Positions 1 through 30,115 are shown, numbered from the stretch's first letter. The stretch: DNA of 39,069 bases from Oscillospiraceae bacterium (GCA_022508735.1 JAFLUQ010000004.1:1-39069); one strand, 5' to 3'. Program-made: numbers and translations. The notes: a model not told the origin generated them from the letters alone.

Positions 1-65
1 TCAGTTGGGAGAGCGCTTGCTTCGCATGTAAGAGGTCAGGGGTTCGAATCCCCTTGTCTCCACCA
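1..65 (+). tRNA. tRNA-Ala (anticodon CGC), 3' portion; the 5' end lies outside the window
   Basis: D-loop TCAGTTGGGAGAGC. Anticodon stem CTTGC/GTAAG with loop TTCGCAT, giving anticodon CGC. T-arm AGGGG-TTCGAAT-CCCCT. The acceptor 3' strand TGTCTCC carries the U70 expected for the G3:U70 Ala identity pair, followed by discriminator A and an encoded CCA at 63-65. Confidence 0.9.
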
Positions 66-5084: not shown

Positions 5085-5115
5085 AAAAGGGGACTGCCGA
5101 AGCAGTCCCCTTTTT
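5085..5115. terminator. Bidirectional intrinsic terminator shared by spoVM (+) and mini-ORF 1 (-)
   Basis: AAAA-GGGGACTGC-CGAA-GCAGTCCCC-TTTTT, a 9-bp perfect stem. Confidence 0.8.
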
Positions 5116-5132: not shown

Positions 5133-5306
5133 TTACAGCCAACCCTCGCTTGCACCCATCCAAATTTCAGCCTTTGTTTCGTCAGTGTCAGAAACACTGC
5201 TCATATTGGATTTTTTATTAACCAGATTGGCTGACGCAGCCATCACGTCCGTATCAGGAGTGAGGGTTGTCATCTCAACCTCAGGAGTTTCAAAATACTT
5301 TCTCAT
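5133..5306 (-). CDS. Mini-ORF 1 (57 aa), acidic, no signal peptide; paralogue of 25810..25989; unknown function
   Basis: MRKYFETPEVEMTTLTPDTDVMAASANLVNKKSNMSSVSDTDETKAEIWMGASEGWL. GGAGG immediately follows the stop of the upstream giant gene, and the gap to the ATG is 15 nt. It shares M-[KR]-[KR]-YFE-x-P-x-V and a C-terminal IWxG with the second copy. It is absent from the ORF track, whose shortest listed ORF is 60 aa. Confidence 0.65.
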   Translation of the reverse strand: MRKYFETPEVEMTTLTPDTDVMAASANLVNKKSNMSSVSDTDETKAEIWMGASEGWL

Positions 5307-5321
5307 TTTTATTAATCCTCC

Positions 5322-8300
5322 TTATACTTCTTCAATAAAGTCGAGCTCGCCGGCAACAGTCTCGTCGGCAGCAGCTTCTTCAACCTCAAGAACGAATTCT
5401 ACGTCTTCAAGGTAGATAACAGCCTCAAGAGCCATAGCATCGCCGATCGTTATTGTCTTTCCGTCATTGGATACAGTAACGCCGCTCTTGATATCAGACT
5501 CTTTATCAGAAGCATACTTAATTGTGTCTGCGAATCTTACACCCGCATTGTAAACCTCTGCCTTAAGATCAATGGTGATCGTGTCATCATTATCTGTGAG
5601 GGTCATGAGCAGCTCCGCCTCAGCTGTAAGCTTTCTGTTAGTGAGATAGATACCGCCGTTATTCAGAACCTCCATAGCCTTAACAAGCTGATCCTCTTTA
5701 ATAACAGTATCAGCGTTCTTGGCTGCGAAGTCTGCTACTGCCTGTGCAACAAGGCTGTATACGCTGACAACAGCTGTTGCCTTGCTTTCAACTTCGTCGG
5801 TCACACCAACCGCCTGATAGCTGGCGTTAGTATCGGCAGTGGAGAAGGCCACGCCGGACTCACCGTTAAGCTCGCCAACTACGGGGTTCTCCTTATCGCC
5901 GTTCTTGTAAACCTTCACGCTGTCACCGCTGTAGGTGAAGTCGATAGTGAAGTCTTCAGCCTCATCATCCCAGCCAAGGCTTACGATAGGAGCGGGAATA
6001 GTTGCAGTTACTTCTTTGATCTCATCCTCACTGAGAGCAGTATTGAAGAACATGAAGTTGTCGATAGTGCCGTTGAAGTCCTGATTGTTGCCACGGTTAG
6101 CAGTATCAGTATACCACTGGCCACGACCGATGAGGTTGCGGTCTGTTGCGCCGGCGATCTGATATGCCTGATAGGTAACATTTGTGCCTGTAGCCTGAGT
6201 AACGATATTGTTATCACTGTCTACAGTATAAACTGTTGTTGTCTTTGTAGCAGCGTTATAGCTTGTAACAAGCCAATACTCGCCGCTAAGATATGCTCCG
6301 CCCTGAACCATAAGCGTTGTGCCGCCGGCATACTTGACACCCGCCTGATATCTGTTTCCGTCACGGGTATTAAGTCTGGTAAACATGCTGTTGCCGGAGT
6401 TCATTCCGAAGTCATAAAGTCTGGGATCCTGTCTGTCTGTACCACCGGAGATCTTCTGAACAACGGTGTAGCTGCGAACGCCCTTAAGGAAGTCATGAGG
6501 AACGTTCAGATAGCCGTTTGTATCCCAACCGTCAGCAGTGTTGGCGGTAAGGTCAAGCTTGCCGTTGTCAAAGTTAGCCTTGCTTCCCTTAACCTCGGCG
6601 TCAAGGCCGTTGCCGCTTACGTCGGGAACAATATTTCCGTCTACATTGTTGAAATCATAGTAGAACATAAGGTTCTCGTCCATAACGTCAACCTTTGCAA
6701 GCACGGTCACTGTGAACACCTTAGTGCTGTCGCCGGCCGAGGCTGTAAGAGTTACAACATGATCCTCGCCGTCACGGGTAACAGCGCCGGTAGCATCCAT
6801 AACGCCGTCGCCGTCTACAGTCCAGGTCACCGTCTTTCCGTCAGCCGTCTTAGTGGGAAGAACAAGGTCGGTAACAGTCTCAGACGGAATAGAGAGACCA
6901 TTGATAGTGTCAACACTGTCTTCATCAAACTCCTCGGCCGCGGCGCGAACCTCAGCCTGAGTGAAGGCCACATCGGCAGAGCGGAGATTGGTGATCATGC
7001 CCTCTCCGCCAAGTGTAACTGTGTCGCCAAGAGATACGTTCACGTTCTGCATGGTGGCGTCGATAAGGCCGTTTACATATGTAACGAGCTCAGAGCCGTC
7101 ATAGGTAATTGTGTAGTTGATCCAGCCGAGAGAACTCTGGCCCTTTGTGCCGCCGGTGCCGCCAAGACTGAAGTACCAGGCGGAGTCACTAAACAGATTC
7201 TGGCTCTTTTCAACAACACTGCCAACTGTGAGCTTGGGAGCCACAGCAGCATAATTGTGTGTGTTGTCAACTGTCTGCTTTTCAAGGTCGATCTTAAGGT
7301 TGCCGCTCTTGAGAAGAGTACCTTCGGCAGCCATATCGCTCTGGAGAAGCTCCAGAGAAATAGTGAACTCCTTGCCGGCAGTAATGGGAGCGGTCGCTGT
7401 AACGCCGTCGCCAACGCCGTAAATTTCTTCATCAACGCCGTCAAACTTGTTTACAACCGGAAGCTCCTTAAGCTCAGTTGTTGTCATCATCTGAACGGGA
7501 TAACCCAGACCGCCGTGCTGGTTGCTGTGGATCCAGTAGTAATAGTCACCGTTGAACCAGGTCAGGCGCAGGTCGCCTTCCTCGCTGCCGTTGGAAACGT
7601 AGGGACGGGCGTTATCCTTCATGGAATCCTTTGTGATAAATTCTTCGTCTGCAAGATCGGTGTAACTATCGTTAAGAGTCCATTTTACGATCTCCCAAAT
7701 TCTGCCGAATGCGCCGTCAACAGGAATAGATGCATAAACGATATGGGGATCAGCCTTATCAATGGACATACCGCCGCTGTAGCAGTTCTCAGTAGCGGGT
7801 GTCTGGTGGAAGAATGTGTTGAAGGAGGGATCGGGCAAATCGAAAATGTTCCAGCCACTGCCTGTATATGTAGCATAGTAGTAGTTGTGAACCTTTTTGC
7901 TGCCGTCGATCTTGACCATAGCTATAACAGGGAACTCAACCTTATTTTCACCTTCAACTCTTTCGTCAAGAGCGATCTCCCAAACCCAGTCACGGTAGTT
8001 GGCTGTACGATCTACCACATAATTGGGGTCGGTCTCGTTACCGCTTACAGTGTATACATTGCTCGATTTAAGGTCGCTGAGCTCGTTGCCCTTCATATCG
8101 TAAAGCTTGAGCTCGGGGATGCTGATATAGTTGCAGTAGATGGGGTTTGTACCTACATTGTCAGGATGTGTGCCGGTATAGGTGAGCCAGATCTTGTCCT
8201 TGCCGTTGGAAGCGTACTTGGCATAGGGCCTGATATTGCTGCCCAGAGTGGACTGCACGATCTGTCTGGGCCCCCAGGTAAATTTAGTTGTAAAGCCGTT

Positions 8301-9794
8301 ATCCTTAGAAGGCATTTCGAGCTGAGCGATCGTAGGATGCCATTCCACACCTCTCCATGTGAGATAGATGTGATCAGGGTCGCTTTCAAGAATAACAGGG
8401 TTGGGATATGTTGTATTCTTCTCCGTAGCGAGTCTGTGCTCCTCACCAAAGGTAGTAATATCATAGGCCTCCTTAGAGACTCTGTAGTAGAAGCAGGGTT
8501 CGTCGGTATGACGGGAGTAGAATATCATAATCTTATGGTCGGGGAGTTCGAGGAAGGTGGGGTTGTTATGGTCGTCGGGCTGCAGATTGCTGCGGACGAG
8601 TACTTCCTCGTAGTCGCCGGTAAGATTGTCATACTGTGTAGCTCTTACGTTACCTACGTTATCTATGTAGCCAATATAAGTGTAGTTCACGCCGTCACCC
8701 TTAACAGTAAGCGTTCTGGGATCGGCGAACCAGCAGGTGGCTCCGTCGGCGATAACGCTGCCGGTAATACCTGCGCCGTCAAATTTATTATACATGATCG
8801 TAATTACGTTGTCACTTCCTGCCTTAGGAGTTATAGTGAGGGTAGAATCCTTTTCACTATAGGTGTAGATGTCATCGCCGATTTTAATAGGCGCTGTGCT
8901 CTGGGGAACATATGTGAAGCTTTCTCCAACGGTAGCGAGAACCTCCTTATCATCCACACCGGAGGGGGTGCCGTCGGAAAGCACGGTCTTAACCGTCACC
9001 TTAACTACCTTTTCACTGTCAACATTAGCAGAGATCTTAAGTCCCTGAAGAGCCATAGCGGCATACTGGTTATTCCACTGAGGAATATTTGCGCTGATGC
9101 TGCCAAAGCCATTTATGCTGTCGATAGTCTCAGTTGTGATGACTTCAAATTCACCGTTTTTATCACTGTCATAGCTGTAGGTAACAGTATATGTTCCATC
9201 AGCAGCCTTTACCGCCTCAATGCGGAAAGGTACACCGCGCATACCGAGAACCTTGCTGCGATCATGGCTTACAAGAGCATATGCTGTACCGTTCACGCCG
9301 CCGATATCCATACCGGCATTCTGCACGCCGCCTGAGGTCGCGCTTCCCGCGTCAGTATAAACTGTGGCAAACTCTTTGCCGTCGACGTCAAGGAAATGCC
9401 ATCTCTGATACAAATCAGAGGCTTCCTGCGTTGCATAAGTGTACTCGATAACGATTTTATCGCTACCGGCGGTTATGGCGCCATCATCAAAGGTCGCAAC
9501 CTTTGTTTCGTCAGTTCCGTTTGCCCTTGCGCCTGTGCGGAAGAACATGAGTCCCGCAACACCCCATGGCGCAACGTTCCATGCGCCACCTGTGCTCCAC
9601 TGGGAACTGAACAGGGCACCACCCTCGTTGGCAGACCAGCCATAATCGGCAAGCTGGATATCGCCATGAGTGGCGGTGTCAATTTCGGCCGCGTCAAAGA
9701 CCACTGTTTCCTCAACAGCCGCAAATGCGTTAAGCACCGGGCATATTGAAAGAATCATTGCCAAGGCCACGACCAGGGAAATAAATTTTTTCAT
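5322..9794 (-). CDS. Giant secreted modular protein 1 (1490 aa): signal peptide, shared N-module, Ig-like domain, BNR_4-like beta-propeller, LamG, Ig-like, LamG, shared C-module
   Basis: Signal peptide MKKFISLVVALAMILSICPVLNAFA. BNR_4-like motifs QPDDHNNPTFLELPDHKIMIFYSRH. LamG_3-like segments LMFYYDFNN...GNGLDAEV and FNGTIDNFMFFNTALSEDEI. The C-terminal 221 aa are homologous to the C-terminus of 26003..30061. AAGGAGAG lies 7 nt upstream of the ATG. Confidence 0.85.
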   Translation of the reverse strand: MKKFISLVVALAMILSICPVLNAFAAVEETVVFDAAEIDTATHGDIQLADYGWSANEGGALFSSQWSTGGAWNVAPWGVAGLMFFRTGARANGTDETKVATFDDGAITAGSDKIVIEYTYATQEASDLYQRWHFLDVDGKEFATVYTDAGSATSGGVQNAGMDIGGVNGTAYALVSHDRSKVLGMRGVPFRIEAVKAADGTYTVTYSYDSDKNGEFEVITTETIDSINGFGSISANIPQWNNQYAAMALQGLKISANVDSEKVVKVTVKTVLSDGTPSGVDDKEVLATVGESFTYVPQSTAPIKIGDDIYTYSEKDSTLTITPKAGSDNVITIMYNKFDGAGITGSVIADGATCWFADPRTLTVKGDGVNYTYIGYIDNVGNVRATQYDNLTGDYEEVLVRSNLQPDDHNNPTFLELPDHKIMIFYSRHTDEPCFYYRVSKEAYDITTFGEEHRLATEKNTTYPNPVILESDPDHIYLTWRGVEWHPTIAQLEMPSKDNGFTTKFTWGPRQIVQSTLGSNIRPYAKYASNGKDKIWLTYTGTHPDNVGTNPIYCNYISIPELKLYDMKGNELSDLKSSNVYTVSGNETDPNYVVDRTANYRDWVWEIALDERVEGENKVEFPVIAMVKIDGSKKVHNYYYATYTGSGWNIFDLPDPSFNTFFHQTPATENCYSGGMSIDKADPHIVYASIPVDGAFGRIWEIVKWTLNDSYTDLADEEFITKDSMKDNARPYVSNGSEEGDLRLTWFNGDYYYWIHSNQHGGLGYPVQMMTTTELKELPVVNKFDGVDEEIYGVGDGVTATAPITAGKEFTISLELLQSDMAAEGTLLKSGNLKIDLEKQTVDNTHNYAAVAPKLTVGSVVEKSQNLFSDSAWYFSLGGTGGTKGQSSLGWINYTITYDGSELVTYVNGLIDATMQNVNVSLGDTVTLGGEGMITNLRSADVAFTQAEVRAAAEEFDEDSVDTINGLSIPSETVTDLVLPTKTADGKTVTWTVDGDGVMDATGAVTRDGEDHVVTLTASAGDSTKVFTVTVLAKVDVMDENLMFYYDFNNVDGNIVPDVSGNGLDAEVKGSKANFDNGKLDLTANTADGWDTNGYLNVPHDFLKGVRSYTVVQKISGGTDRQDPRLYDFGMNSGNSMFTRLNTRDGNRYQAGVKYAGGTTLMVQGGAYLSGEYWLVTSYNAATKTTTVYTVDSDNNIVTQATGTNVTYQAYQIAGATDRNLIGRGQWYTDTANRGNNQDFNGTIDNFMFFNTALSEDEIKEVTATIPAPIVSLGWDDEAEDFTIDFTYSGDSVKVYKNGDKENPVVGELNGESGVAFSTADTNASYQAVGVTDEVESKATAVVSVYSLVAQAVADFAAKNADTVIKEDQLVKAMEVLNNGGIYLTNRKLTAEAELLMTLTDNDDTITIDLKAEVYNAGVRFADTIKYASDKESDIKSGVTVSNDGKTITIGDAMALEAVIYLEDVEFVLEVEEAAADETVAGELDFIEEV

Positions 9795-9832: not shown

Positions 9833-9861
9833 ATTTTACACTATTATTCTTTTTTTGTCAA
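9833..9861 (-). promoter_or_regulatory. Sigma-A-type promoter for giant protein 1
   Basis: On the minus strand: TTGACA (9861-9856), a 17-nt spacer, then TAAAAT (9838-9833). Confidence 0.55.
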
Positions 9862-9942
9862 GCATTATTTGTTGATTTTGCACAAATATTCTCGCACATG
9901 AGCCTTTCGCACTTACCTCTTTATTTTGTAAACTTTTTTTCA

Positions 9943-9981
9943 CAAAATAACCCCTTTGTTTTTCACAAAGGGGTTATAAAA
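9943..9981 (-). terminator. Intrinsic terminator downstream of recA
   Basis: ATAACCCCTTTG / CAAAGGGGTTAT forms a 12-bp perfect stem with a 7-nt loop, followed by TTTT on the minus strand. Confidence 0.8.
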
Positions 9982-9993
9982 GCAATTATCTTT

Positions 9994-11070
9994 CTACTCC
10001 TCATCGCCCTCCGACGAAGATGGGATACCATAGGTCACCTCGGCTATCTTCATGCGTACAAGGCTGTCTATCATCTGAGTGAATTCGGGGTTTTCCTCCA
10101 TGTACTTACGAACGTTGTCGCGGCCCTGCCCGAGACGGTTGCCCTCATAGCTGAACCACGCTCCGCTGCGCTTTATTATGCCGAGCTCCTCGGCCACGTC
10201 AAGTATGCAGCCTTCTTGGCTGATGCCTTTGCCGTAGATTATGTCGAACTCCGCCTCCTTAAAGGGGGGCGCCACCTTATTTTTAACGACCTTAGCCCGG
10301 GTTCGGTTACCGATGAACTCAGCACCGTTCTTAATGGCGTCTATCCTTCTTATGTCAAGCCTTACCGAAGCATAGAACTTGAGAGCCCGGCCGCCGGCAG
10401 TGGTCTCGGGGTTGCCGTACATAACGCCGATCTTCTCACGGAGCTGATTTATGAAAATACAAACGGTGTTGCTCTTGTTAACCACACCTGCCAGCTTACG
10501 GAGAGCCTTGCTCATAAGACGGGCCTGAAGGCCCACATGAGAGTCGCCCATCTCGCCCTCGATCTCGGCCTGGGGCACCAGTGCGGCAACCGAGTCAACG
10601 ACTATAACATCCAGCGCACCGCTGCGGCACAGAGCCTCGGTTATTTCAAGGGCCTGCTCACCGGTATCGGGCTGAGAAACTATGAGGCTGTCAACGTCCA
10701 CGCCTATAGCCGCGGCGTAAACAGGGTCAAGGGCGTGCTCAGCATCTATAAAGGCCGCCTCTCCGCCGCGCTTCTGTGCCTCGGCCACCACATGAAGGGC
10801 GACCGTGGTCTTACCGCTGGACTCAGGGCCGTAAATTTCGATTATTCTGCCACGGGGAACGCCGCCGATACCGAGCGCCAGATCCAGACTCATGGCGCCG
10901 GTGGGGATCGCGTCCACATTCAGGCGCGGAGTCGCGCCAAGGCGCATAACGCTGCCCTTGCCGTATTGCTTCTCTATCTGGCCCATAGCGAGAGTAAGGG
11001 CCTCCTTTTTAGCTTCAGCCTCCTGTATGTCAACGACAGGGGCAATTTTTTTCTTATCATCTTTAGCCAT
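9994..11070 (-). CDS. recA: Recombinase RecA (358 aa)
   Basis: Unambiguous RecA sequence: [15 protein letters not shown], the Walker [20 protein letters not shown] and [23 protein letters not shown]. Confidence 0.98.
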
Positions 11071-11098
11071 TTTTATCTTCCTCCTTTTGTTTACTTAG

Positions 11099-11112
11099 CG
11101 AACATCTGTTCT
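11099..11112 (-). promoter_or_regulatory. LexA (Cheo/SOS) box overlapping the recA transcription start region
   Basis: The minus strand reads AGAACAGATGTTCG, a GAAC-N4-GTTC match to the Gram-positive SOS-box consensus CGAACnnnnGTTCG. It lies 2 nt downstream of the -10. Confidence 0.7.
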
Positions 11113-11113
11113 C

Positions 11114-11142
11114 ATTATATAACGAATTGTCCGATTTGTCAA
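11114..11142 (-). promoter_or_regulatory. Sigma-A promoter of recA
   Basis: On the minus strand: TTGACA (11142-11137), a 17-nt spacer, then TATAAT (11119-11114). Both hexamers match consensus. Confidence 0.7.
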
Positions 11143-11150
11143 TAATTTTT

Positions 11151-11633
11151 TTATATTTTATTTGAAGTGAGCCTGAGAGCCGCAAGCACGGTCTGCTTTC
11201 GTATTTCGTCGCGGCTTCCGCTTAGGTTCAGCTTTTCGGCCCAAGCGCCGCTCTCTGTAGATATACCCACATACACAAGACCAACCGGCTTTTCTGGAGT
11301 TCCGCCGCCGGGCCCGGCTATGCCGGTGACCGCAACGGCTATATCGGCTCCGCTCACCTTGCGCGCTCCCTCGGCCATTTCACGGGCAGTCTCGGGGCTC
11401 ACGGCCCCGTGCGAGAGAAGCGTATCGTGCCGCACGCCTAAAAGCTTCTCCTTTGCCTCGTTGGCATAGGTTATAAAGCCAAAGCCGTATACCTCGCTGG
11501 CACCGGGTACGCTCGTTAAACTCCCGCCTATCATGCCGCCGGTACAGCTTTCTGCGGTAGCCACGGTTTTGCGTTTTTCAGCCAACAGATCGACTAAATG
11601 TTTAGCCGAGGAAATGATCTCCTCATTTATCAT
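11151..11633 (-). CDS. cinA: CinA C-terminal-domain-only protein (PncC-type nicotinamide-nucleotide amidohydrolase family), 160 aa
   Basis: ATAESCTGGMIGGSLTSVPGASEVY...VAVTGIAGPGGG is the CinA/PncC signature. Start re-called to the ATG at 11633, with GAGGA 7 nt upstream; the track uses a TTG at 11660 inside the thiI stop region. It occupies the classic position upstream of recA. Confidence 0.8.
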   Translation of the reverse strand: MINEEIISSAKHLVDLLAEKRKTVATAESCTGGMIGGSLTSVPGASEVYGFGFITYANEAKEKLLGVRHDTLLSHGAVSPETAREMAEGARKVSGADIAVAVTGIAGPGGGTPEKPVGLVYVGISTESGAWAEKLNLSGSRDEIRKQTVLAALRLTSNKI

Positions 11634-11649
11634 TCCTAAATCCTCACTC

Positions 11650-12828
11650 CTAACCTTCAATCAACACCCATTCCGTCTCATCCACGGCCTTGTTGACCCA
11701 ATATTCCATATCTATCTTGCTTTGACTCTGGAGGACCTTGCCGAGCACGGGCTTTGTGGTCGGATGCTTAGGTACGAACACCGTACAGCAGTCCTCATAT
11801 GGCAAAATAGAGGTCTCAAAAGTGCCTATCTTTCTGGCAACGGAAACGATCTCGTCCTTGTCCATACCCACCAGCGGGCGGAACACAGGAAGATCCTTAA
11901 CAGCCTCATTTGTCACGCCGAGGGCGTGGATAGTCTGGCTGGCAACCTGCCCCAGGCTCTCGCCGGTTATCAGGGCAAGACTCTTGCTCTTTTTGGCCAG
12001 CCGCTCGGCTACCATCATCATCATGCGGCGCATTATGAGGGTCAGATGCTCCTCGGGGCAGTTGTCGCGAATAGCGAGCTGTTGCTCGGTAAAGGGAACG
12101 ATATACAGGCTGTACTTCCCTGTGTATCCCGCCAATATCCGCCCCAGCTCAATAACCTTTTCCTTGGCCAGATCGCTTGTATAGGGCGGGCTGAAAAAGT
12201 GAACAGCGTTCAGCTCAACGCCGCGCTTTGCCAGCATATAACCCGCAACGGGGCTGTCTATGCCTCCGCTGAGGAGCAGCGTGGCCCGGCCGTTGCTGCC
12301 GGTGGGCATACCTCCCGGCCCGGCGACGCGGGCAATGTCGGCATATACATAGGCCTCGTTTTCGCGTATCTCCACGCGGACTATGGTCCCCGGCTCGGCG
12401 ACGTTCACCTTAAGGTGACGGCTTCTGCGAAGCACCGCGCCGCCCATCTCGCGGCTTATGGCCGGAGAGTCAAAGGGGAACTTTTTGTCGCTGCGCTTGG
12501 CCTCTACCTTGAAGGTATCCACCAGCTCCATATACGGAGCCAGATACTCCGGGCCTTCCTTTAATATAACGTCCATGTCCTTCGGGAAAACTCCGGCACG
12601 GGCAATGAACACTATGCCGAATATCTTCTGAAGGCGGGCTATTATGTCGTCAACGTCAGCTCCATCGTCGGGCTCAACATAGGTTATGGCCTGAGATTTG
12701 CGCACGCTCTTGAAGCTGTCTTTAGGCAGAGCCTTTTTTATGTTGCCGATGAGCAGGTCCTCAAAGCGGCTGCGGTTCAGGCCCTTGAGAATGATCTCAC
12801 CGTATTTTATCAGGATTATTTCTCTCAT
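11650..12828 (-). CDS. thiI: tRNA uracil 4-sulfurtransferase ThiI (392 aa, no rhodanese domain)
   Basis: N-terminal ferredoxin-like/THUMP region MREIILIKYGEIILKG. PP-loop LLLSGGIDSPVA. Confidence 0.9.
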   Translation of the reverse strand: MREIILIKYGEIILKGLNRSRFEDLLIGNIKKALPKDSFKSVRKSQAITYVEPDDGADVDDIIARLQKIFGIVFIARAGVFPKDMDVILKEGPEYLAPYMELVDTFKVEAKRSDKKFPFDSPAISREMGGAVLRRSRHLKVNVAEPGTIVRVEIRENEAYVYADIARVAGPGGMPTGSNGRATLLLSGGIDSPVAGYMLAKRGVELNAVHFFSPPYTSDLAKEKVIELGRILAGYTGKYSLYIVPFTEQQLAIRDNCPEEHLTLIMRRMMMMVAERLAKKSKSLALITGESLGQVASQTIHALGVTNEAVKDLPVFRPLVGMDKDEIVSVARKIGTFETSILPYEDCCTVFVPKHPTTKPVLGKVLQSQSKIDMEYWVNKAVDETEWVLIEG

Positions 12829-12829
12829 T

Positions 12830-13936
12830 TTATCTTCTCCATTTCTCGGCAGCCTCTTTTACAGCTGCAACCGTCGCCTCAATTTCAGCCTCGGTGTTAT
12901 AGCGCGACAAACTGAACCGGACTGAATTGTCAGCCATAGCGCCCATAGCTTTAAGCACATGACTGCCGCCGGATTTAGCCGAGGCGCAGGCGCTGCCGCT
13001 GGATACGCCTATCCCGGCCGAATTCAGGGCGTTCAGCATGACCTCGCTGCGTATACCCTCAAAGGATATATTAAGGATATATGGGCTTTCGTTTTCACCG
13101 CCGTTATGCACTGTGCCGGGTATCTTCAGAACTTCTTCCATAAGTCGGGCCTTGAGCGCCGGAACATGCTCCCCGCCAGACTTCATCAGCTCCGCCGCCA
13201 TGGCAAGGCCGGCAATGGCCGGGAGGTTTTCTGTGCCGCTTCTGAGGCCTCTTTCCTGACCGCCTCCATAGACCGTTTCTTTAAGCGTCACGCCCTTTCG
13301 AACGTAAAGCGCGCCGATCCCCCGTGGGCCGTGTATTTTATGGCCGCTGATGCTGACCATGTCTACGCCCCAGCGGGCGAAATTCAGCGGTATGTGCCCA
13401 AAGGCCTGCACCGCGTCGGTGTGTAGGAGGGCCCTCGGCGCGGCCTTTTGCAGGATAGGCTTTATTTTATCCACCGGCATTATGGCTCCGGTCTCGTTGT
13501 TCACGGCCATGACCGACACGAGGCAGGTCTCGGCGTTAATGGCTTCGCGGAAGGTCTCAAGGGGCACAACGCCGTCTTTTCCGGGATTGAGGTATACCAC
13601 CTCAAACCCCTGCTCGCCTAACCGCTTCATGCACTCCAGAACAGCCGGATGCTCCACGGCAGTGGTAACGACGCGCTTTCCCTTTTTTATGTTAGCGCCG
13701 CCCAGCACCGCTATATTATCGCTCTCGGTGCCGCCGGATGTGAAGTATACCTCATCGGGCTGCACGCCCATGGTTTTTGCCAGCCTTTTCCGGCAGTCCT
13801 CAAGGTGCTTCGCGGCCTCGGCTCCGAGCCTGTGGCGGCTCGACGGATTGCCGGGATAGTACGTCATGCAGTCCACCATTTCACGGACTACCTCCGGCGC
13901 GGTCAGGGTAGTTGCGCTATTATCCAAATAAATCAT
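12830..13936 (-). CDS. iscS: Cysteine desulfurase (NifS/IscS class V aminotransferase), 368 aa
   Basis: MIYLDNSATT start, the PLP-lysine region SISGHKIHGPRGIGALY, and the active-site Cys loop SSGSACAS. There is a 1-nt gap to thiI, the conserved desulfurase-thiI pairing. Confidence 0.85.
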   Translation of the reverse strand: MIYLDNSATTLTAPEVVREMVDCMTYYPGNPSSRHRLGAEAAKHLEDCRKRLAKTMGVQPDEVYFTSGGTESDNIAVLGGANIKKGKRVVTTAVEHPAVLECMKRLGEQGFEVVYLNPGKDGVVPLETFREAINAETCLVSVMAVNNETGAIMPVDKIKPILQKAAPRALLHTDAVQAFGHIPLNFARWGVDMVSISGHKIHGPRGIGALYVRKGVTLKETVYGGGQERGLRSGTENLPAIAGLAMAAELMKSGGEHVPALKARLMEEVLKIPGTVHNGGENESPYILNISFEGIRSEVMLNALNSAGIGVSSGSACASAKSGGSHVLKAMGAMADNSVRFSLSRYNTEAEIEATVAAVKEAAEKWRR

Positions 13937-14448
13937 GTTTGATCCTTCTTTATTTTCTTATTGCGTACGATCTCAATGGCCTCTTTACCGGTCATGTGCT
14001 CGACGGTCATTTCCAGCATGCAGAGCCGATCATATTCCTTGTCTATTTCTGTATTCATATCTTCTTCGCTGCCCATAGGGTTATACCGCCGGGCAAGCAG
14101 CTCTATAGCGCGGCGCATTTCAGAGTCGTCGGTTATCTCGCGTATACGGCCGAATGCGATAACGCTGCGGAAAAGAGTTGTATACTTCTCCGGCACGACC
14201 TCGTCCTGAGCAATAACGCAGAATGAGGCCTTGTTACAATTTCGCACAGCATCCAGCTTGTGGCCGGACTTGGCACAGTGAAAATATATTTTTCCTCCAT
14301 TATATGTATAGCTCAGCGGCACGCCGTAGGGATAGCCTCCGTCGCCAAAAACGGACAGCACTCCCGAGGTGGCGCTCATGAGTATTTCCTCGGCGTCTGC
14401 ATCGGTAAGCTGCTGGGCCGAGCGCCGCATAGGGCGGAAGGTCGACAT
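13933..14448 (-). CDS. Pyridoxamine 5'-phosphate oxidase family protein (NimA-like flavin-binding split barrel), 171 aa
   Basis: MRRSAQQL...GVLSVFGDGGYPYGVPLSYTYNGGKIYFHCAKSGHKLDA is typical of the Pyridox_ox_2 family. GGAGGGG lies 6 nt upstream. The gene overlaps the desulfurase start by 4 nt. Confidence 0.75.
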   Translation of the reverse strand: MSTFRPMRRSAQQLTDADAEEILMSATSGVLSVFGDGGYPYGVPLSYTYNGGKIYFHCAKSGHKLDAVRNCNKASFCVIAQDEVVPEKYTTLFRSVIAFGRIREITDDSEMRRAIELLARRYNPMGSEEDMNTEIDKEYDRLCMLEMTVEHMTGKEAIEIVRNKKIKKDQT

Positions 14449-14460
14449 ACTGATCCCCTC

Positions 14461-16239
14461 CTAATTCAATTCATACTGGCTCGTACACAGTGAATAATAC
14501 GCGCCCTTCTTTGCCATGAGCTCTTCATGGGTACCGCTCTCGACTATTCTGCCGCCATCGATGTACATTATGCAGTCGGCTCCGCGGATAGTGGAGAGGC
14601 GGTGAGCGATAACAAAGCTTGTGCGTCCGGCAAGCAAGCGGTTAAGCCCCAGCTGAAGAGCCTGCTCGGTGCGGGTGTCGATAGACGAGGTGGCCTCGTC
14701 GAGGATAAGAATTCTCGGGTCAGCCAGAAGTGCGCGGGCAAAGCTGATGAGCTGGCGCTGGCCCACGCTCAGGCGGCTGCCGCGCTCGTTTACCTCGGTG
14801 TAGTATCCGTTTTCAAGGGTCTCGATAAACTCATGGGCGCAGACGGTCTTGGCCGCGGCGATAACCTCCTCGTCGGTGGCGTCAAGTCGGCCGTAGCGTA
14901 TGTTATCCATAACGGTGCCGCTGAAAATAAAGGTATCCTGCAGCATTACGCCCACCTGCGAGCGCAGGGAGTTAAGCGTATATTTTGTGATATTCTCGCC
15001 GTCAATGAGTATCTCGCCGCCCTGAATGTCGTAAAAGCGGCTGAGCAGATTGATTATCGTGGTCTTACCCGCGCCGGTGGGGCCTACGACGGCTATGGTC
15101 TGGCCCTTATCGGCCGAGAAGCTGAGTCCCTTAAGGATATCAACGCCCTCTTCATAGGCAAAGGTCACATTCTTAAAGTCAACACGGCCCTCAATGGGAG
15201 GCATTTCCACGGCTCCGGGCTTATCTGTCACAAGGGCGGGAGTATCCATCACCTCAAAAATGCGTTCAAGGTAGGCCGCTGTGTTGATGAGCTGATTGTA
15301 GTAGTTGCATAGCGACAGAACAGGCGTCCAGAACAGGTTTACATAACCCACAAAGGCCACCAGCGTACCGGCGGTTATCCCGCCGCCATTCAAAAGGTTC
15401 GCGCCGCCGATAAGGAACACGGCACAGGTGGTAATTGTGGATATAGTTTCAACCATGGGCCAGTTGCAGATGTCGATGATCTTTGCCTTCATATAGCTGG
15501 AGCGGACGTTTTCGCACTGGGTCTCAAATATCCGCTGATTTTCCTTTTCTCGGCTGAAGGACTGGGTAACCTTTATGCCGCAGATGCTCTCATGAATATA
15601 GGCGTTGAGGTTGCTCTGCTTGGCGCTGTAGTCCTGCCAGACGCGCCGCTGGCGGTTTTTCATGGCAAAGATTATGCCGCTGAAAACCACCACGCCGCAG
15701 AGCATGACAATACTCAGCTCAAGGCTGAGCGAGAACATCAGCAGCATCACGACGATAACCGTGAACAAATCGGTTATCAGGTTTATAAGTCCGCCGGTAA
15801 GGAGGTTATTTATGGAGTTAACATAGTTTATTACCCTCACCAATATCTTGCCGTGGGGGCGGCTGTCATAAAAGTCAAAGGGCAGCTCCTGCAAATGCTC
15901 GAATATATCCCTGCGCAAATTGGCAACGAGGTTCTGGCCCACGGTGGCCATGGCGCGCATGCGGAACTTCACGATTATGGCGTTGATAAGGTAGATAACA
16001 ACCAAAATTGCACCAAGAATCAGTATGCCGCGCATATCCCGCGCCGGGAGGCGCACGTCAATGGCCTCGCGGGTGATTATGGGCGCCAGCATATTCAGCA
16101 CGCTGGTCAGGAGCATAAGGCCGATGGTGAGCAGCATCAGCCACTTAAAGGGGATAAGATAGCGGGCCAGACGCTTAATATGGTCAAAGCTGAACTGACT
16201 TTCAAGTCTTTCGTCCACATCGAATTTATTTCTAGCCAT
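14461..16239 (-). CDS. ABC transporter ATP-binding/permease fusion protein (type I exporter half-transporter), 592 aa
   Basis: Six-TM exporter domain followed by an NBD with Walker A GPTGAGKTT, signature LSVGQRQ and Walker B ILILDEATS. Confidence 0.9.
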   Translation of the reverse strand: MARNKFDVDERLESQFSFDHIKRLARYLIPFKWLMLLTIGLMLLTSVLNMLAPIITREAIDVRLPARDMRGILILGAILVVIYLINAIIVKFRMRAMATVGQNLVANLRRDIFEHLQELPFDFYDSRPHGKILVRVINYVNSINNLLTGGLINLITDLFTVIVVMLLMFSLSLELSIVMLCGVVVFSGIIFAMKNRQRRVWQDYSAKQSNLNAYIHESICGIKVTQSFSREKENQRIFETQCENVRSSYMKAKIIDICNWPMVETISTITTCAVFLIGGANLLNGGGITAGTLVAFVGYVNLFWTPVLSLCNYYNQLINTAAYLERIFEVMDTPALVTDKPGAVEMPPIEGRVDFKNVTFAYEEGVDILKGLSFSADKGQTIAVVGPTGAGKTTIINLLSRFYDIQGGEILIDGENITKYTLNSLRSQVGVMLQDTFIFSGTVMDNIRYGRLDATDEEVIAAAKTVCAHEFIETLENGYYTEVNERGSRLSVGQRQLISFARALLADPRILILDEATSSIDTRTEQALQLGLNRLLAGRTSFVIAHRLSTIRGADCIMYIDGGRIVESGTHEELMAKKGAYYSLCTSQYELN

Positions 16240-17989
16240 TTAAAACGCCCCCTTTCGCGCCTATAGCGTCAAAGCTGCCGTACTGAGTGTCGTACACTTC
16301 TTTGTATCTGCCTCCTAATCGAAGCAGCTCCTCGTGAGTGCCGCGCTCGGCTATGCGGCCGTCCTCCATAACGAGAATGAGGTCGGCGTCCTTCACAGCG
16401 CTGATGCGGTGTGCTATAATAAAGGTGGTGCGGCTTTGTGAGAACTCTTTAAGAGTCCTCTGTATGTAATGCTCAGTCTCCATGTCCACACTGCTGGTAG
16501 TGTCGTCAAGAATGAGGATCGACGGATTTTTGAGTATGGCGCGGGCAAGGGCGATGCGCTGCTTCTGCCCGCCGGAGAGGCCCACTCCCCTCTCGCCGAT
16601 TATTGTGTCATACCCGTCGGGCATGGAGCGGATAAAGCCGTCGGCATCGGCCATCTTTGCGGCCTCGACGATTTCCTCCATGGGAGCGTCGGGCACACCG
16701 TAGGCGATATTGCCCTCGATGGTGTCAGAGAACAAGAAAATATCCTGCATGGCGATGGATATGCTTTGTCTCAGGCGGCGGAGGTTCAGGTGGCGCACGT
16801 CTACGCCGTCAACCTTGACGCTGCCGCTTGTGGCGTCATAGAACCGGCAGATAAGATTAGTCAGCGTGGATTTTCCGCTGCCGGTCTCGCCGATTATGGC
16901 CACTGTCTGGCCGGGCACGGCGGTGAAGCTTACGTCGCGGAGCACCTCCTCCTCGCCGTAGGAGAAGCTCACGTGGTCGAAGTCCACGCGGCCGTCAAAG
17001 CGGTCCTTTTCGGTATAGCCCTTTTCGGTGTGGATGACCGGCTTTTCAAGGGTGAATTCCATGATCTTTTCGCCGCTGGCCATGGCGTTCTGAGAGTCGT
17101 TGATGAGCCAGCCAACGTTGCGCATGGGGGTATTCAGCGCCCAGCTCATGGAGTTGAAGGTAACGAACTCACCGGGAGTCATGTCGCCGCGAACGACCAA
17201 AAAGCCGCCCACAACGAGCACGATCACGTTAAGAGAGTTGGCAAGAGTATCGAGGTACGGAATATGATTCTGCCAAATTCGGTTAGATTTGAGGTTGGCG
17301 TCACGGTATTCGAGGTTCGCGGCGTCAAATTTCTGCATTTCGTACTTTTCCCGCGCGAAGGCCTTTACCACGCGGTTGCCGGAAATATTCTCCTGCACAA
17401 CCGTATTGAGCATGCTGAGCCGCTGGCGGGCATTGCGGAAGGCCGGGCCTACCTTTGTGCCCATAGAGCGGGCAACGAAGGCTATGATCGGAGTGACGGC
17501 CAAAAGGCAGAGGGTAAGCTTCCAGTTGGTGAAGAAAAGTATGATAAGTGCCGAAAAGAACAGGCACACGTTCTCGAGTATTCCGTTCACGACCCAGGCC
17601 ACAAAGTGGCGCACGCTGTCGATATCGCCACTCATGCGGTTCATGATGTCGCCGGTACGGTTATGGTCAAAGAAGGGGAAGTCCAGCTTCTGGAGAGATT
17701 TGTACAGCTCCACGCGGATGTTGTAAACTATCCTCTGGCTGGTGCCCTCAAGAATGTAGTGGTCGATAATCCTGAAAATGTCCTTGAGCACAATGGACAA
17801 AAATATCAGCACCACAAGGATCATCAGCCGGTCTCTCATACCGTCATAGAACACCTCATCCACAATGCGGCCTGTCAGATAGGGTCGTACATTACTCAGC
17901 ACGGTGTTTATCATCGTCAGGCACAGGGCGAATATCGTACGCCCCAAATACGGCCTGATATAGCTGAATATCCATTTTAAAGTTTTCAT
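16232..17989 (-). CDS. ABC transporter ATP-binding/permease fusion protein, heterodimer partner, 585 aa
   Basis: Walker A GETGSGKST, signature LSGGQKQR, Walker B ILILDDTTS. An 8-nt overlap with the downstream half-transporter suggests translational coupling. Confidence 0.9.
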   Translation of the reverse strand: MKTLKWIFSYIRPYLGRTIFALCLTMINTVLSNVRPYLTGRIVDEVFYDGMRDRLMILVVLIFLSIVLKDIFRIIDHYILEGTSQRIVYNIRVELYKSLQKLDFPFFDHNRTGDIMNRMSGDIDSVRHFVAWVVNGILENVCLFFSALIILFFTNWKLTLCLLAVTPIIAFVARSMGTKVGPAFRNARQRLSMLNTVVQENISGNRVVKAFAREKYEMQKFDAANLEYRDANLKSNRIWQNHIPYLDTLANSLNVIVLVVGGFLVVRGDMTPGEFVTFNSMSWALNTPMRNVGWLINDSQNAMASGEKIMEFTLEKPVIHTEKGYTEKDRFDGRVDFDHVSFSYGEEEVLRDVSFTAVPGQTVAIIGETGSGKSTLTNLICRFYDATSGSVKVDGVDVRHLNLRRLRQSISIAMQDIFLFSDTIEGNIAYGVPDAPMEEIVEAAKMADADGFIRSMPDGYDTIIGERGVGLSGGQKQRIALARAILKNPSILILDDTTSSVDMETEHYIQRTLKEFSQSRTTFIIAHRISAVKDADLILVMEDGRIAERGTHEELLRLGGRYKEVYDTQYGSFDAIGAKGGVLNG

Positions 17990-18048
17990 TGAATATCAAG
18001 TCCTTTACATGTTATTGTAAGACTTTTTCAATTTCCCGTTTTTTTGAT

Positions 18049-20226
18049 CTATACTAGCGTAAGCTGTTCACTGGCTCCGTCCTCGCCCTTCAGATAGTAG
18101 CCCGACGAGGGCAGACTTTTAGCCCGATAGCTATCGGGGGTCTTGAGGGCATCCTCCGGCAGGAACATGGCCTTTAAGAGGCTCTTGCGCCGAAGGGTCA
18201 GAATCTGCACACCCTGCGCTGTGCGGCTGGTCTTGGTGAGGATATTGGCGGTGTTGAACACCACGCACTTGTCGATAGTGCTGATAAGCGCCACATCCCG
18301 CTCCTCGGGGATATACAGGCAGCCGATAAGATTTCCGCTGCCGTAGGCGCCGGTCAGGCGCTTGCGGTTGGTCTTGGTGGCGTAGCTGTTCATATCTATT
18401 TTGGCGACCTTGCCGCTGTCGAAGGCAAAGAGCATGAAGCCCTTGTAGTCGTATGCCGGAGTGGCGAAAACTATTCTCTCTCCCTCCTCCATGCCGAGGA
18501 TATTGGGCAGATAGTCTCCCATGACGGAGAGCTTGGAATCGCCGAAGGCGCTTAGCCGCATCTTGTAGCAGTTACGCTGATCGGAGAAGAACAGTATATC
18601 CTGAGCGTTGCCGGTCTCGGCCTCGCAGATAACCGCGTCGCCCTCCTTGAGCTTTTGTGTTCCGCCGTTACGAAGAGCTGTCAGCGGTATCTTTTTGAAG
18701 TAGTTTTCCTTCGTCATAAACACCTTAACGCGGTAGTCCTCAACCTTTTCCTCCTCGACCGGGGCGACAGTGACCTCATGAGCGGCAATTATTTCTGTCT
18801 TACGCGGCTTGCCGTATTTCTTGGCGATCTCCTTCAGCTGATTTATGATGACCCTGTGTATCAGCTTGTCGCTCTCAGCGGTGCGGCGCAGCTCGGCAAT
18901 ATCGCCCACCAGACTTTCGATCTCCGCAGTGCGCTTTAAAATATAGTCCTTGTTCAGATTGCGCAGCTTGATCTCCGCCACGAACTCGGCCTGTATTTTA
19001 TCGATGTCGAAGCCCTCCATGAGGTTTGGCACTACCATGGAGTCGTCGGGGGTATTTCGCACGATACGTATGGCCTTGTCAATATCAAGAAGTATTTTTT
19101 CAAGACCTCTCAAAAGGTGCAGCCTGGCCTCCTTGTTTTCCGCGTCGAATATGCACATGCGGCGGATGCTCTCGGTTCGGAAGTCGGTCCACTCCTTAAG
19201 TATCTCTTTGATACCCATGACGCGGGGTTCGCCGTCAATGAGAATATTGAAGTTGCAGCCGAAGCTGTCTTCAAGGGTGGTCTTGTCGTAGAGCTTGGCC
19301 ATGAGCTTATCCGGGTCAGTTCCGCGCTTAAGGTCAATGGTCAGGCGAAGGCCGCCCAGATCTGTCTCATCGCGAACGTCGTTTATCTCGCGGATCTTGC
19401 CGGACTTCATCAGCTCGGCTATTTTTTCGATTATTACCTCCACGGCCGTGGTATAGGGGATCTCTGTTATCTCTATGGTATTGCTCTTTTTCTCATATAC
19501 GTACTTTCCGCGCACCTTAAGGCTGCCGAGGCCTGTCTCGTAAACCTGCGCCCATGCCTCGGGGTTCTCTATGAGCTGCCCGCCGGTGGAAAAGTCGGGG
19601 CCAAGGATGTATTCCCTCAGGTCAGCCTTGTTGTCTTTGAGATAAGCTATGGTCGCGTCGCATACCTCTTTCAGGTTAAAGGAGCAGATCTTGCTGCCCA
19701 TGCCGACGGCTATGCCCATATTTGGGCTTACAAGGATATTCGGGAAGGCCGTTGGCAGAAGCACCGGCTCCTGAAGAGTTCCGTCATAGTTATCGATAAA
19801 GTCCACGGTGTTTTTCTCTATATCGCGGAATATCTCCTCACAGATAGGGGCCAGCTTGGCCTCAGTATATCTGGAGGCGGCGTAAGCCATGTCGCGGCTG
19901 TACTGCTTGCCGAAATTGCCCTTGGAGTCCACAAATGGGTGAAGCAGAGCCTCGTTGCCCTCTGTAAGGCGCACCATAGTCTCGTAAATAGCCGCGTCGC
20001 CGTGGGGATTGAGCTTCATAGTCTCGCCCACGATCGTGGCGCTCTTTGTACGCTTGCCGCGGAGCAGACCGCGCTTATACATCATAAAGAGCAGCTTCCG
20101 GTGAGCCGGCTTAAAGCCGTCGATCTCGGGAATGGCTCGGGAACGGATAACGCTCATGGTATAGGGCATATAATTTTTTTCAAGAGTCTCGGTTATTTTT
20201 TCGGGGGTCGCATAGTGCATGGGCAT
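18049..20226 (-). CDS. parC: DNA gyrase/topoisomerase IV subunit A family protein (short ParC-like form, 725 aa)
   Basis: N-terminal YMPYTMSVIRSRAIPEIDGFKPAHRKLL. Catalytic Tyr region YAASRYTEAKL. GGAGG lies 7 nt upstream. No B-subunit gene is adjacent. Confidence 0.8.
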   Translation of the reverse strand: MPMHYATPEKITETLEKNYMPYTMSVIRSRAIPEIDGFKPAHRKLLFMMYKRGLLRGKRTKSATIVGETMKLNPHGDAAIYETMVRLTEGNEALLHPFVDSKGNFGKQYSRDMAYAASRYTEAKLAPICEEIFRDIEKNTVDFIDNYDGTLQEPVLLPTAFPNILVSPNMGIAVGMGSKICSFNLKEVCDATIAYLKDNKADLREYILGPDFSTGGQLIENPEAWAQVYETGLGSLKVRGKYVYEKKSNTIEITEIPYTTAVEVIIEKIAELMKSGKIREINDVRDETDLGGLRLTIDLKRGTDPDKLMAKLYDKTTLEDSFGCNFNILIDGEPRVMGIKEILKEWTDFRTESIRRMCIFDAENKEARLHLLRGLEKILLDIDKAIRIVRNTPDDSMVVPNLMEGFDIDKIQAEFVAEIKLRNLNKDYILKRTAEIESLVGDIAELRRTAESDKLIHRVIINQLKEIAKKYGKPRKTEIIAAHEVTVAPVEEEKVEDYRVKVFMTKENYFKKIPLTALRNGGTQKLKEGDAVICEAETGNAQDILFFSDQRNCYKMRLSAFGDSKLSVMGDYLPNILGMEEGERIVFATPAYDYKGFMLFAFDSGKVAKIDMNSYATKTNRKRLTGAYGSGNLIGCLYIPEERDVALISTIDKCVVFNTANILTKTSRTAQGVQILTLRRKSLLKAMFLPEDALKTPDSYRAKSLPSSGYYLKGEDGASEQLTLV

Positions 20227-22271: not shown

Positions 22272-22395
22272 TCTTGCAAAGTAGGATCACGCGCGTTAAG
22301 TGAGAGAGGGACGGGAAGTTGCCCTCTCTACGAAAGACTGAGGTCAAATTTTACTTCGTCTGCGGTGCGTGCTCCGCATTCCGTTGCTACGAGAA
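22272..22395 (+). promoter_or_regulatory. THF (tetrahydrofolate) riboswitch aptamer, THF-I class
   Basis: AGUAGGAUCACGCGCGUUAAGUGAGAGAGGGACGGGAAGUUGCCCUCUCUACGAAAG...GCGGUGCGUGCUCCGCAUUCCG aligns segment by segment with the THF-I aptamer as I recall it: ..CGCGUUAAGUG-hairpin-A(U/C)GGGA(U/A)GU(C/U)G-hairpin-ACGAAG...GCGGUG...GCAUCCG. It sits upstream of a folate ECF S-component gene. Confidence 0.85.
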
Positions 22396-22453: not shown

Positions 22454-22972
22454 ATGCAAAAAAAACCGCAAATTTCCACCAAAATAATTGTGACCGTGGG
22501 TGTGCTCACAGCCCTCAGCGTGCTTTTCCGCCTCTTTCTGGGCTATCCGCAGACCGGGAACACCCGCTATGATCTGGGCTTTCTTCCGATCGCTGCCGTA
22601 GGGCAGATGTTCGGCGCACTCTGGGGCGGAGTCAGTTATGTGCTGGCGGATTTGGTTGGCACCTTTTTCACGGGGCAGTCTCCCTACCCTCCCATCACGC
22701 TGTGCAAATTCCTGTTTGGCGCCATATTCGGCCTTTATTTCTATGGGCGCAGGCTCTCGTTATCGAGAATACTCTTCTGCGTGCTGACCATATCCGTGGT
22801 CGTAGACCTCATCGCCATGCCTTTTGCCCTCTCCCCCCTTATGGGCGTGGGCGCTTATGCCATACTCGTGCAGCGGCTGGTTCAGGTGGCAGTTATGTTT
22901 CCGGTGCGCACCGTTTCTATCTGGCTGATGGACAGATACATCGGAAGGTATTATATGGAAAAATACAAATAA
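22454..22972 (+). CDS. folT: ECF transporter S component, folate family (FolT-like), 172 aa
   Basis: Multi-TM protein of S-component size and layout (KIIVTVGVLTALSVLFRLF...). It lies downstream of a THF riboswitch and upstream of folC. Confidence 0.75.
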   Translation: MQKKPQISTKIIVTVGVLTALSVLFRLFLGYPQTGNTRYDLGFLPIAAVGQMFGALWGGVSYVLADLVGTFFTGQSPYPPITLCKFLFGAIFGLYFYGRRLSLSRILFCVLTISVVVDLIAMPFALSPLMGVGAYAILVQRLVQVAVMFPVRTVSIWLMDRYIGRYYMEKYK

Positions 22973-22997
22973 AAACTATTTCAAGGAGATGAGCCGA

Positions 22998-25767: not shown

Positions 25768-25807
25768 ACGTAAAAACAGTGGGCCATGCGGCCCACTGTT
25801 TTTACGT
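25768..25807. terminator. Bidirectional intrinsic terminator shared by the HAD gene (+) and mini-ORF 2 (-)
   Basis: ACGTAAAAACAGTGGGCC-ATGC-GGCCCACTGTTTTTACGT is an 18-bp perfect inverted repeat that includes the A and T tracts. Confidence 0.85.
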
Positions 25808-25989: not shown

Positions 25990-26002
25990 GTTTATTACCT
26001 CC

Positions 26003-30061: not shown

Positions 30062-30115
30062 TTTCTGTTTTCCTCCCTTTTTGTTTTTAACTTGAACCAA
30101 TATTAACCTGAGTAT

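Follow-up and report, generated by a model that had tools for sequence, protein, structure and literature searches.

What does a reading frame of only 57 codons, placed directly behind the gene of a very large secreted protein, do for that protein? Microproteins are widely missed by annotation or left as 'hypothetical', and few of them come with a clear genetic partner that makes their function testable. The frame at positions 5133-5306 on the minus strand of the 39,069-nucleotide stretch analysed here (the window, from an Oscillospiraceae genome) has such a fixed partner, a module of about 235 residues which is itself unannotated. This C-terminal module (CTM) is carried by very large secreted proteins of gut Clostridia, some of which probably degrade glycans, and one of which belongs to an iron/heme-uptake operon. 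Neither the small protein (the mini) nor the CTM belongs to any curated family. If the pair served specifically for export, masking or anchoring, this would account for the handling or display of such exoproteins in this lineage without SLH or sortase signals, and two new families would be defined. The scope is narrow, the mini-CTM pair being rare and lineage-restricted.

Two related mini-protein genes in the window

The original prediction described two uncalled ORFs of 57 and 59 codons as homologous genes, and both proved to be real ORFs. Mini gene 1 (5133-5306, minus strand; 57 codons, ATG-initiated) encodes MRKYFETPEVEMTTLTPDTDVMAASANLVNKKSNMSSVSDTDETKAEIWMGASEGWL, a protein of pI 4.3 and net charge -5 that begins with MRKYFETPEV and ends with IWMGASEGWL. 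It matched the family HMM with an E-value of 6e-26, and its orthologues at two of the loci described below, L001 and L002, are 70% and 56% identical. A six-frame motif scan of the window returned exactly one further copy, mini gene 2 (25810-25989, minus strand), whose 59-aa product, MKRYFEIPQVCIEALDPANSIMDEPLVSMNLAKINAVDYSNKLTDDTSKDYSIWKGFNH, has a pI of 4.75, matched the family HMM with an E-value of 6e-21 and is 64% identical to its orthologue at L006. BLASTP aligned the two minis over their whole length with 17 of 56 positions identical (30%; E 3e-7, for a single pairwise comparison). The alignment confirmed the predicted identity of six of the first ten residues (M1, Y4, F5, E6, P8 and V10) and, further on, L15-x-P17, M22 and I-W-x-G. 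This similarity is far beyond chance, and a profile search returned 16 full-length representatives of 55-60 aa. As had also been predicted, both proteins are acidic and lack a signal peptide and a Cys-rich core, with 0 and 1 cysteines, respectively; neither has a hydrophobic segment.

Each of the two genes has a GGAGG Shine-Dalgarno sequence 8-10 nt 5' of its ATG and is followed by an intrinsic terminator. The hairpin behind mini gene 1 (5085-5115, minus strand) consists of GGGGACUGC-UUCG-GCAGUCCCC followed by UUUU, with a dG of -23.8 kcal/mol and a z score of -5.9 against shuffles, and is kept in L001; the one behind mini gene 2 (25768-25807, minus strand) has an 18-bp stem and a U-run (dG -31.8 kcal/mol, z -7.5, computed in the same way). 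No Rfam family was found over either mini region. One word of the original prediction did not hold: the two ORFs are not 'uncalled', because public records already call the gene. Both window proteins and their relatives are present in NCBI/nr as hypothetical proteins (e.g. MCH5188768.1), and the mini is thus uncharacterised rather than uncalled. We conclude that 5133-5306(-) is a genuine protein-coding gene.

A rare family under purifying selection

A HMMER pass over 1.84 billion (1.84e9) representative proteins returned 16 representatives at E <= 1e-3, which placed the family outside this genome as the original prediction needed. All 16 were 55-60 aa long and aligned end to end, and none formed part of a larger protein. 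When both window sequences were used as queries, a word-seeded search of 5.8 billion proteins added one member (P0003, 69% identical). A second one with 20 query sequences gave 19 proteins, mostly singletons from Logan, ENA and NCBI assemblies, among which the only source name was 'hypothetical protein [Oscillospiraceae bacterium]' (MCH5188768.1). A scan of species-representative genomes yielded one more member, in a MAG of uncultured Clostridia whose sample bears the label Lapin-024. In total, about 25 sequences were found among 15 billion proteins, all carried by uncultured or poorly studied Oscillospiraceae, so that the family is real but rare and belongs to Oscillospiraceae/Clostridia. Scans of the JGI metagenomes with the mini and with the CTM gave no match. 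Nor did the family match anything in viral contigs (IMG/VR) or in phage and plasmid collections, which argues against reading the pair as a mobile-element or phage tail-fibre/chaperone system. Literature string searches with the conserved peptides found none.

Assignment to a known, unrelated small-protein family, which would have told against the predicted genes, was not obtained: Pfam-A and NCBIfam gave 0 families for both window minis, 20 members scanned at E <= 10 gave just scattered single chance matches, and the best match of a PDB sequence profile search had an E-value of 0.72. Across 20 members, M1, F5, P8, S25, W49 and G51 were invariant, and the family consensus reads MKKyFExPxVN...L....DvM.ASA.L, then about 15 variable residues, then D......[IL]WkG.GeGW[LIV]. 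The predicted signature, M-[KR]-[KR]-Y-F-E-x-P-x-V near the start and I-W-x-G near the end, therefore stood in F5, P8, W49 and G51 and failed in Y4, E6 and I48, which vary; the motif valid for the whole family is M-[KR]-[KRN]-x-F-x-x-P-x-[VI] ... [ILM]-W-x-G. The expected purifying selection was seen in dN/dS ratios of 0.11-0.64 (Nei-Gojobori, with synonymous sites at or near saturation in several pairs). Taking W1 and W2 for the two window copies, the ratios, from orthologous or near-orthologous pairs, were 0.28 for W1-L001, 0.26 for W1-L002, 0.11 for L001-L002, 0.27 for L002-L003 and a relaxed 0.64 for W2-L006.

In 8 of the 9 members examined the mini had a pI of 4.1-4.75 and a net charge of -3 to -6. 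The lone non-acidic one, at L005, has a net charge of +1, and the CTM tail of that locus is also the least acidic. The minis contain 0-1 Cys and no hydrophobic stretch (maximum 15-residue Kyte-Doolittle mean <= 1.3), and no signal peptide, lipobox, double-glycine leader or transmembrane segment was found in any member. An AF2 model from an 18-sequence alignment (pLDDT 57, pTM 0.16) held one short, low-confidence helix at residues 21-32; as modelled, the mini has no autonomous fold.

The mini gene always follows a gene that ends in the CTM

Genomic context was retrieved for eleven further family members, which together with the window copies W1 and W2 made 13 distinct loci (W1, W2, L001, L002, L003, L005, L006, L009, L010, L011, L013, L014 and L015). 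The predicted tie to the large protein upstream was borne out in full: in 13 of 13 the mini follows a gene ending in the CTM, and the partner is in every case a Sec-signal protein whose last ~235 aa form this one conserved module. The CTM HMM recognised it in 12 of the 13 loci, with E-values from 3e-16 (a 43-residue fragment) to 1.6e-95; at L013, where only the last 29 upstream residues are available, the tail (...SGAALDFEEIL) was recognised by eye and not by the HMM. What precedes the CTM differs: BNR_4/LamG in W1, L001 and L002, LamG/aBig_2/GH43_rel in L003, and no Pfam domain in W2 and L009. At L005 (GCA_964442035.1, 1-6606) the CTM protein has 564 aa and lies in an operon of iron/heme-uptake type, in the order Peripla_BP_2, FecCD, ABC ATPase, CTM protein, mini, NEAT/FMN_bind; here the 3' end of the mini gene overlaps the next gene. 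Among the sequences examined there was no orphan CTM and no orphan mini. Since the mini was the entry point to every locus, there may be CTM proteins that lack one; a word search of the 5.8-billion-protein collection with the CTM gave 8000 candidates, none of which scored.

The junction between the two genes is as constant as their order. The mini gene starts 13-20 nt 3' of the large gene in all 13 loci, and in all of them a Shine-Dalgarno sequence stands at proper spacing. In 12 of these the stop codon of the large gene runs directly into it (TAAGGAGG or TGAGGAGG), and in the thirteenth it lies 6 nt further from the stop. In the window, junction 1 (5307-5324, minus strand; TAAGGAGGATTAATAAAA) has a spacer of 15 nt and junction 2 (25990-26005, minus strand; TGAGGAGGTAATAAAC) one of 13 nt, in a different frame; at both, the stop codon abuts the Shine-Dalgarno sequence of the mini gene, an arrangement which implies translational coupling. 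With spacers of 13, 14, 15 and 20 nt, the frame of the mini relative to that of the large gene varies between loci. In W1 and L001 (5307-5324(-) and L001 4861-4875), the mini happens to be in frame, separated by one TAA and five sense codons (GGLIK), so that stop-codon read-through would yield a fusion protein. Such a fusion was rejected, as the spacer is in frame in these two loci only and measures 13, 14 or 20 nt elsewhere; the differing frames indicate that the mini is a separate cistron and not a read-through extension. With a promoter-like site upstream of large gene 1 (9833-9861, minus strand; TTGACA-17-TAAAAT, 11/12, a consensus match only), mini gene 1 is the second and last cistron of a two-gene operon made up of promoter, large exoprotein, mini and terminator.

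Mini and CTM have also changed together. Their pairwise identities correlated with r = 0.84 and had similar absolute values (28 non-independent pairs), which suggests that the pair diverged as a unit. The two mini-CTM pairs of this genome are 30-41% identical, and each CTM paralogue keeps a mini of its own, the two minis here sharing only 30% identity. Profile-profile comparison of mini and CTM found no relationship, by which we rejected the idea that the mini is a detached copy of part of the CTM.

The large proteins and their C-terminal module

Large protein 1 (5322-9794, minus strand; 1490 aa) consists of a Sec signal peptide, the Pfam domains BNR_4, aBig_2 and Laminin_G_3, and the CTM, of about 236 aa (5325-6032, minus strand). 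Large protein 2 (26003-30061, minus strand; 1352 aa) has no Pfam domain, and its CTM lies at 26006-26740 on the minus strand. The mechanically called ORF of the latter (26003-30229, minus strand; 1408 aa) is over-extended and seems to overlap the AsnB-like gene upstream; the true start is most likely the ATG at 30061, behind GGGAGG, which gives a typical Sec signal peptide beginning MKTKKLLAMLLAIAMITALVPGLAITAGAA.

Two blocks are common to the large proteins, and the original prediction took both as candidate contacts of the mini. The C-terminal block of ~250 aa is 39% identical (E 2e-27) and does travel with the mini. The N-terminal block does not: it covers ~270 aa directly after the signal peptide (window ~8990-9720(-) and ~29110-29880(-)), is more weakly conserved (25% identity, E 2e-6) and matches nothing in Pfam, and the CTM proteins of L003, L005 and L009 lack it.

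No Pfam, NCBIfam or PDB sequence match was obtained for the CTM. In its AF2 model (pLDDT 66, pTM 0.64, from a two-sequence alignment only), residues 16-90 form an FN3-like domain of seven strands, behind which come a part of mixed alpha/beta structure and, at 217-236, the acidic tail, which is disordered. A Foldseek search of this model against the PDB gave generic FN3/Ig matches only, with E >= 0.018 and within the first ~90 residues, and no match beyond them. The acidic tail, ...VIYLEDVEFVLE...GELDFIEEV in large protein 1, follows the consensus ...[VI]YLE[DE][VI]EFV[LF][ED]...ADE.VSGE[LI].F[VI]EE[VIM]-stop and carries a net charge of -11 to -12. Mini and CTM tail are thus both strongly acidic, which makes simple charge complementarity unlikely. 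The invariant residues of the CTM (alignment A4) are hydrophobic, Gly, Ser/Thr/Asn/Gln or Glu, and no H, C, K, R or D is invariant. This argues against a catalytic or toxin domain, and the CTM, judged by its conserved residues, is probably non-catalytic.

The sole hydrophobic segment of the large proteins is the N-terminal signal, from which it follows that the CTM is exported. A membrane-tethered model, with the CTM kept in the cytoplasm behind a transmembrane helix, was rejected on the same ground. Neither SLH nor LPXTG anchors are present in the large proteins, while a neighbouring gene carries SLH.

Genes around the two operons

Operon 1 has cinA-recA directly upstream, and a GH43/SLH protein and an M24 peptidase downstream. 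Further on, the window contains thiI, an iscS-like gene, ABC exporters, parC/gyrA-like genes, aroE/aroK, HAD hydrolases, yqfD, phoH and ybeY; no radical-SAM, PqqD, transglutaminase-like peptidase, prenyltransferase or T7SS gene was found in it. Two long plus-strand ORFs were discarded as genes: the one of 415 aa at 9898-11145(+) is an antisense artefact of recA (9994-11070(-); Pfam RecA E 1.5e-140), and the one of 946 aa at 6495-9335(+) is an artefact opposite large gene 1. At positions 1-62(+) the window edge truncates a tRNA gene, of which the 3' part is left (Rfam RF00005, 44 bits). A coherent folate regulon is made up of a THF riboswitch at 22275-22388(+) (Rfam RF01831, 85.7 bits) and, directly behind it, the genes of an ECF-transporter S component (22454-22972) and of a FolC-like Mur ligase (22989-24260).

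Upstream of large gene 2 lies an asparagine-synthase homologue (AsnB-like; 30207-32027, minus strand) which starts with MCGIAG (Cys2) and has an intact GATase domain. The AsnB-like unit is ended by its own hairpin terminator at 30189-30172, large gene 2 has a new start, and the AsnB-like gene is absent from the other complete mini loci examined. A role as lasso cyclase was rejected, as the MCGIAG start and the intact GATase domain are those of a canonical glutamine-hydrolysing enzyme and the unit has its own terminator. At L003, the region downstream of the mini (10270-18345) contains Stealth and glycosyltransferase genes along with those of an NTP_transf_5 protein of 919 aa and of a protein of 385 aa that matches PqqD/ScmC weakly; these genes are probably unrelated, since they were seen at no other locus.

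A proposed cytoplasmic partner of the CTM

As the mini always comes directly after large secreted proteins of gut Oscillospiraceae that share the CTM, it is most likely the dedicated partner of this module. The shortlist of the original prediction (chaperone or adaptor, inhibitor, co-exported subunit) is still the right one, and within it we favour a cytoplasmic, stoichiometric partner. In this reading, to which we give a probability of about 0.4, the mini is a cognate, translationally coupled protein that binds the CTM in the cytoplasm before export. Translation of the mini would fall to ribosomes coming straight from the end of the CTM and would give roughly 1:1 amounts; disordered alone, the mini would fold onto its cognate CTM through hydrophobic anchors at both of its conserved ends (F5-x-x-P8-x-[VI]10 ... 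L15, and [IL]W49-x-G51 ... GW[LIV]). The mini would thereby act as a customised pre-export escort or mask that keeps the last-made module soluble, unfolded or non-interacting, and Sec translocation would strip it off, leaving the mini itself inside the cell. Its role might be mainly to aid export, or mainly to block a binding activity of the CTM that is harmful inside the cell. The possession of an own, diverged mini by each CTM paralogue, together with the conserved coupling at the stop codon, makes a generic, diffusible role unlikely and points to a partner produced in cis, one per molecule. For Sec substrates general chaperones are normally enough, and private ones are not normally needed. 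This habitual independence of Sec substrates and the predicted acidity of both partners weigh against a cytoplasmic partner and keep our preference for it tentative.

A broader proposal, which we consider rather unlikely, is that gut Oscillospiraceae possess, in CTM and mini together, a device of two parts for biogenesis or surface display that had not been recognised before. If it were true, a coupled, disordered microprotein would be obligatory for the export, folding or positioning of a class of large exoproteins (glycan-degrading enzymes and iron/heme-uptake receptors), and the CTM would be a new C-terminal sorting module.

The best surviving alternative, itself improbable, places the same contact outside the cell: the mini would exit by an unrecognised route or by lysis and bind the exported CTM as a co-subunit, cap or anchoring adaptor, in the service of surface display of large enzymes and receptors. 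The exported CTM does resemble a non-catalytic binding or anchoring module on diverse surface proteins, one of them in an iron/heme-uptake operon, and its carriers, unlike their SLH-carrying neighbour, lack SLH and LPXTG anchors. The conserved Trp/Gly C-terminus of the mini could serve as a binding motif, and a 1:1 gene pairing suits a subunit. Against this stand the absence of any export signal or transmembrane segment from all the minis and the lack of a dedicated transporter conserved beside the pair; moreover, a separate chain cannot ride along through Sec.

Much the same contact inside the cell, with a different purpose, would make the mini a reporter of export. An unexported CTM would hold the mini, and after translocation the freed mini would act on a transcription factor or another target. 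The evidence for cytoplasmic 1:1 binding serves this reading equally, a stoichiometric leftover peptide needs a fate, and in T3SS chaperone-coactivator circuits freed type III secretion chaperones act as regulators. No regulator gene is conserved beside the pair, however, a sigma-70-like gene (L010) and a response regulator (L013) being found at one locus each, and the idea is wholly inferential; we hold it to be quite unlikely.

No better placed is the reading of the mini as a RiPP or pheromone precursor, in which F-x-x-P-x-[VI] would be the leader bound by a RiPP recognition element and the Trp-containing C-terminus the core, with maturases encoded elsewhere. The size of 55-60 aa, the acidity, the conserved ends around a variable middle and the lack of a signal peptide and of an autonomous fold would all suit such a precursor. 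ComX carries a Trp near its C-terminus, of which the conserved Trp of the mini is reminiscent. Lasso cores obey rules: T (rarely I/V) at -2, G/A/S/C as core residue 1 and Asp/Glu at core position 7-9. When P8 is counted as -14, position -2 of the mini is mostly D, core residue 1 is M in most members, and core positions 7-9 show no conserved acidic residue (alignment A3), all of which departs from these rules. The leader resembles the lasso motif YxxPxL, found at positions -17 to -12 (PMC10368454). Lasso precursors and minis are alike in their ~40-60 aa, in lacking a signal peptide and in an N-terminal M-K-K followed by aromatic-x-x-P-x-aliphatic; F5-x-x-P8-x-[VI]10, with F5 and P8 invariant, is a conservative variant of the motif, a six-residue resemblance that by itself is weak evidence. 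The genes for lasso B (transglutaminase-like peptidase), RRE/PqqD and C (Asn-synthetase-like cyclase) proteins are absent from the window and the loci, and at none of the 13 loci is the mini flanked by a conserved radical-SAM, PqqD/RRE, transglutaminase-like peptidase, cyclase, prenyltransferase or export gene; the AsnB-like gene close to mini 2 is the canonical, separately terminated enzyme described above, and the NCBIfam RiPP models gave no match. Nor is there a reason why a signalling peptide should be duplicated and tied strictly to every CTM gene. A lasso precursor was accordingly rejected, on the core rules, the lack of B, C and RRE genes nearby and the strict coupling to a large exoprotein.

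Lastly, it is very improbable that the ORF arose by chance within a conserved 3' UTR or terminator region: it is short and one pair stands at a dN/dS of 0.64, but an intact, full-length frame of 55-60 aa is kept in every relative (16 representative clusters) at identities down to ~30%, dN is low while dS is high or saturated, a well-spaced Shine-Dalgarno sequence is present in 13 of 13 loci, the DNA 3' of the stop is not conserved between L002 and W1, and Rfam gave no match.

Comparison with known systems

Minis share with ComX-type precursors and WXG100 proteins a Trp-x-Gly near the C-terminus, acidity and the lack of a signal peptide. ComX-type isoprenylated pheromones are encoded within comQXPA, next to the polyprenyl transferase ComQ and the sensor kinase ComP, and this identity was rejected, as no comQ/comP genes flank either mini or any relative. 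WXG100 proteins are helical hairpins of ~100 aa with a central WXG and require a T7SS. The mini, rejected as one of them, has 55-60 aa, its WxG lies about 7-9 residues from the C-terminus and its AF2 model shows no helical hairpin; there was no Pfam match to WXG100 (PF06013) even at E <= 10 and no FtsK/EssC-like or T7SS gene in the window.

In polymorphic toxin/immunity pairs the N-terminal delivery region is conserved and the C-terminal toxin domain varies, and the cognate immunity gene comes next. In the mini-CTM pair this architecture is reversed, the N-terminal and central parts being variable and the C-terminal module conserved, and no match to a toxin domain was obtained; such a pair was therefore rejected.

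Customised secretion chaperones, such as type III class I chaperones, and the phage tail-fibre assembly proteins whose genes lie just behind those of their clients come closer. Like the mini, they are cognate, small and acidic, are encoded next to their client and act on one defined client region. Their setting, however, is T3SS or phage assembly, and they are folded dimers of at least about 130 aa, whereas the client of the mini uses Sec, its loci have no T3SS or phage context, and the viral, phage and plasmid collections held no match.

The nearest functional parallel is offered by staphostatins (ScpB/SspC), IFS of S. pyogenes SPN and Spi of SpeB, which are cytoplasmic partners of secreted enzymes and, like the customised secretion chaperones, set a precedent for small acidic cytoplasmic proteins in 1:1 complexes with cognate secreted proteins (PMC1298937). 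Staphostatins and IFS are co-expressed with the gene of a Sec-exported protein and bind it 1:1 in the cytoplasm; the mini is likewise small, acidic, without signal peptide and predicted to be co-transcribed with a Sec-exported partner. They differ from it in being folded proteins of 13-18 kDa that block catalytic sites, whereas the mini has 6 kDa and no predicted fold of its own, and there is no sequence similarity between them. Their targets differ as well, since the CTM lacks conserved catalytic-type residues and the catalytic parts vary between partners, the CTM alone being shared. By analogy, the mini, while a member of no such family, would work most like these small acidic cytoplasmic partners of secreted proteins.
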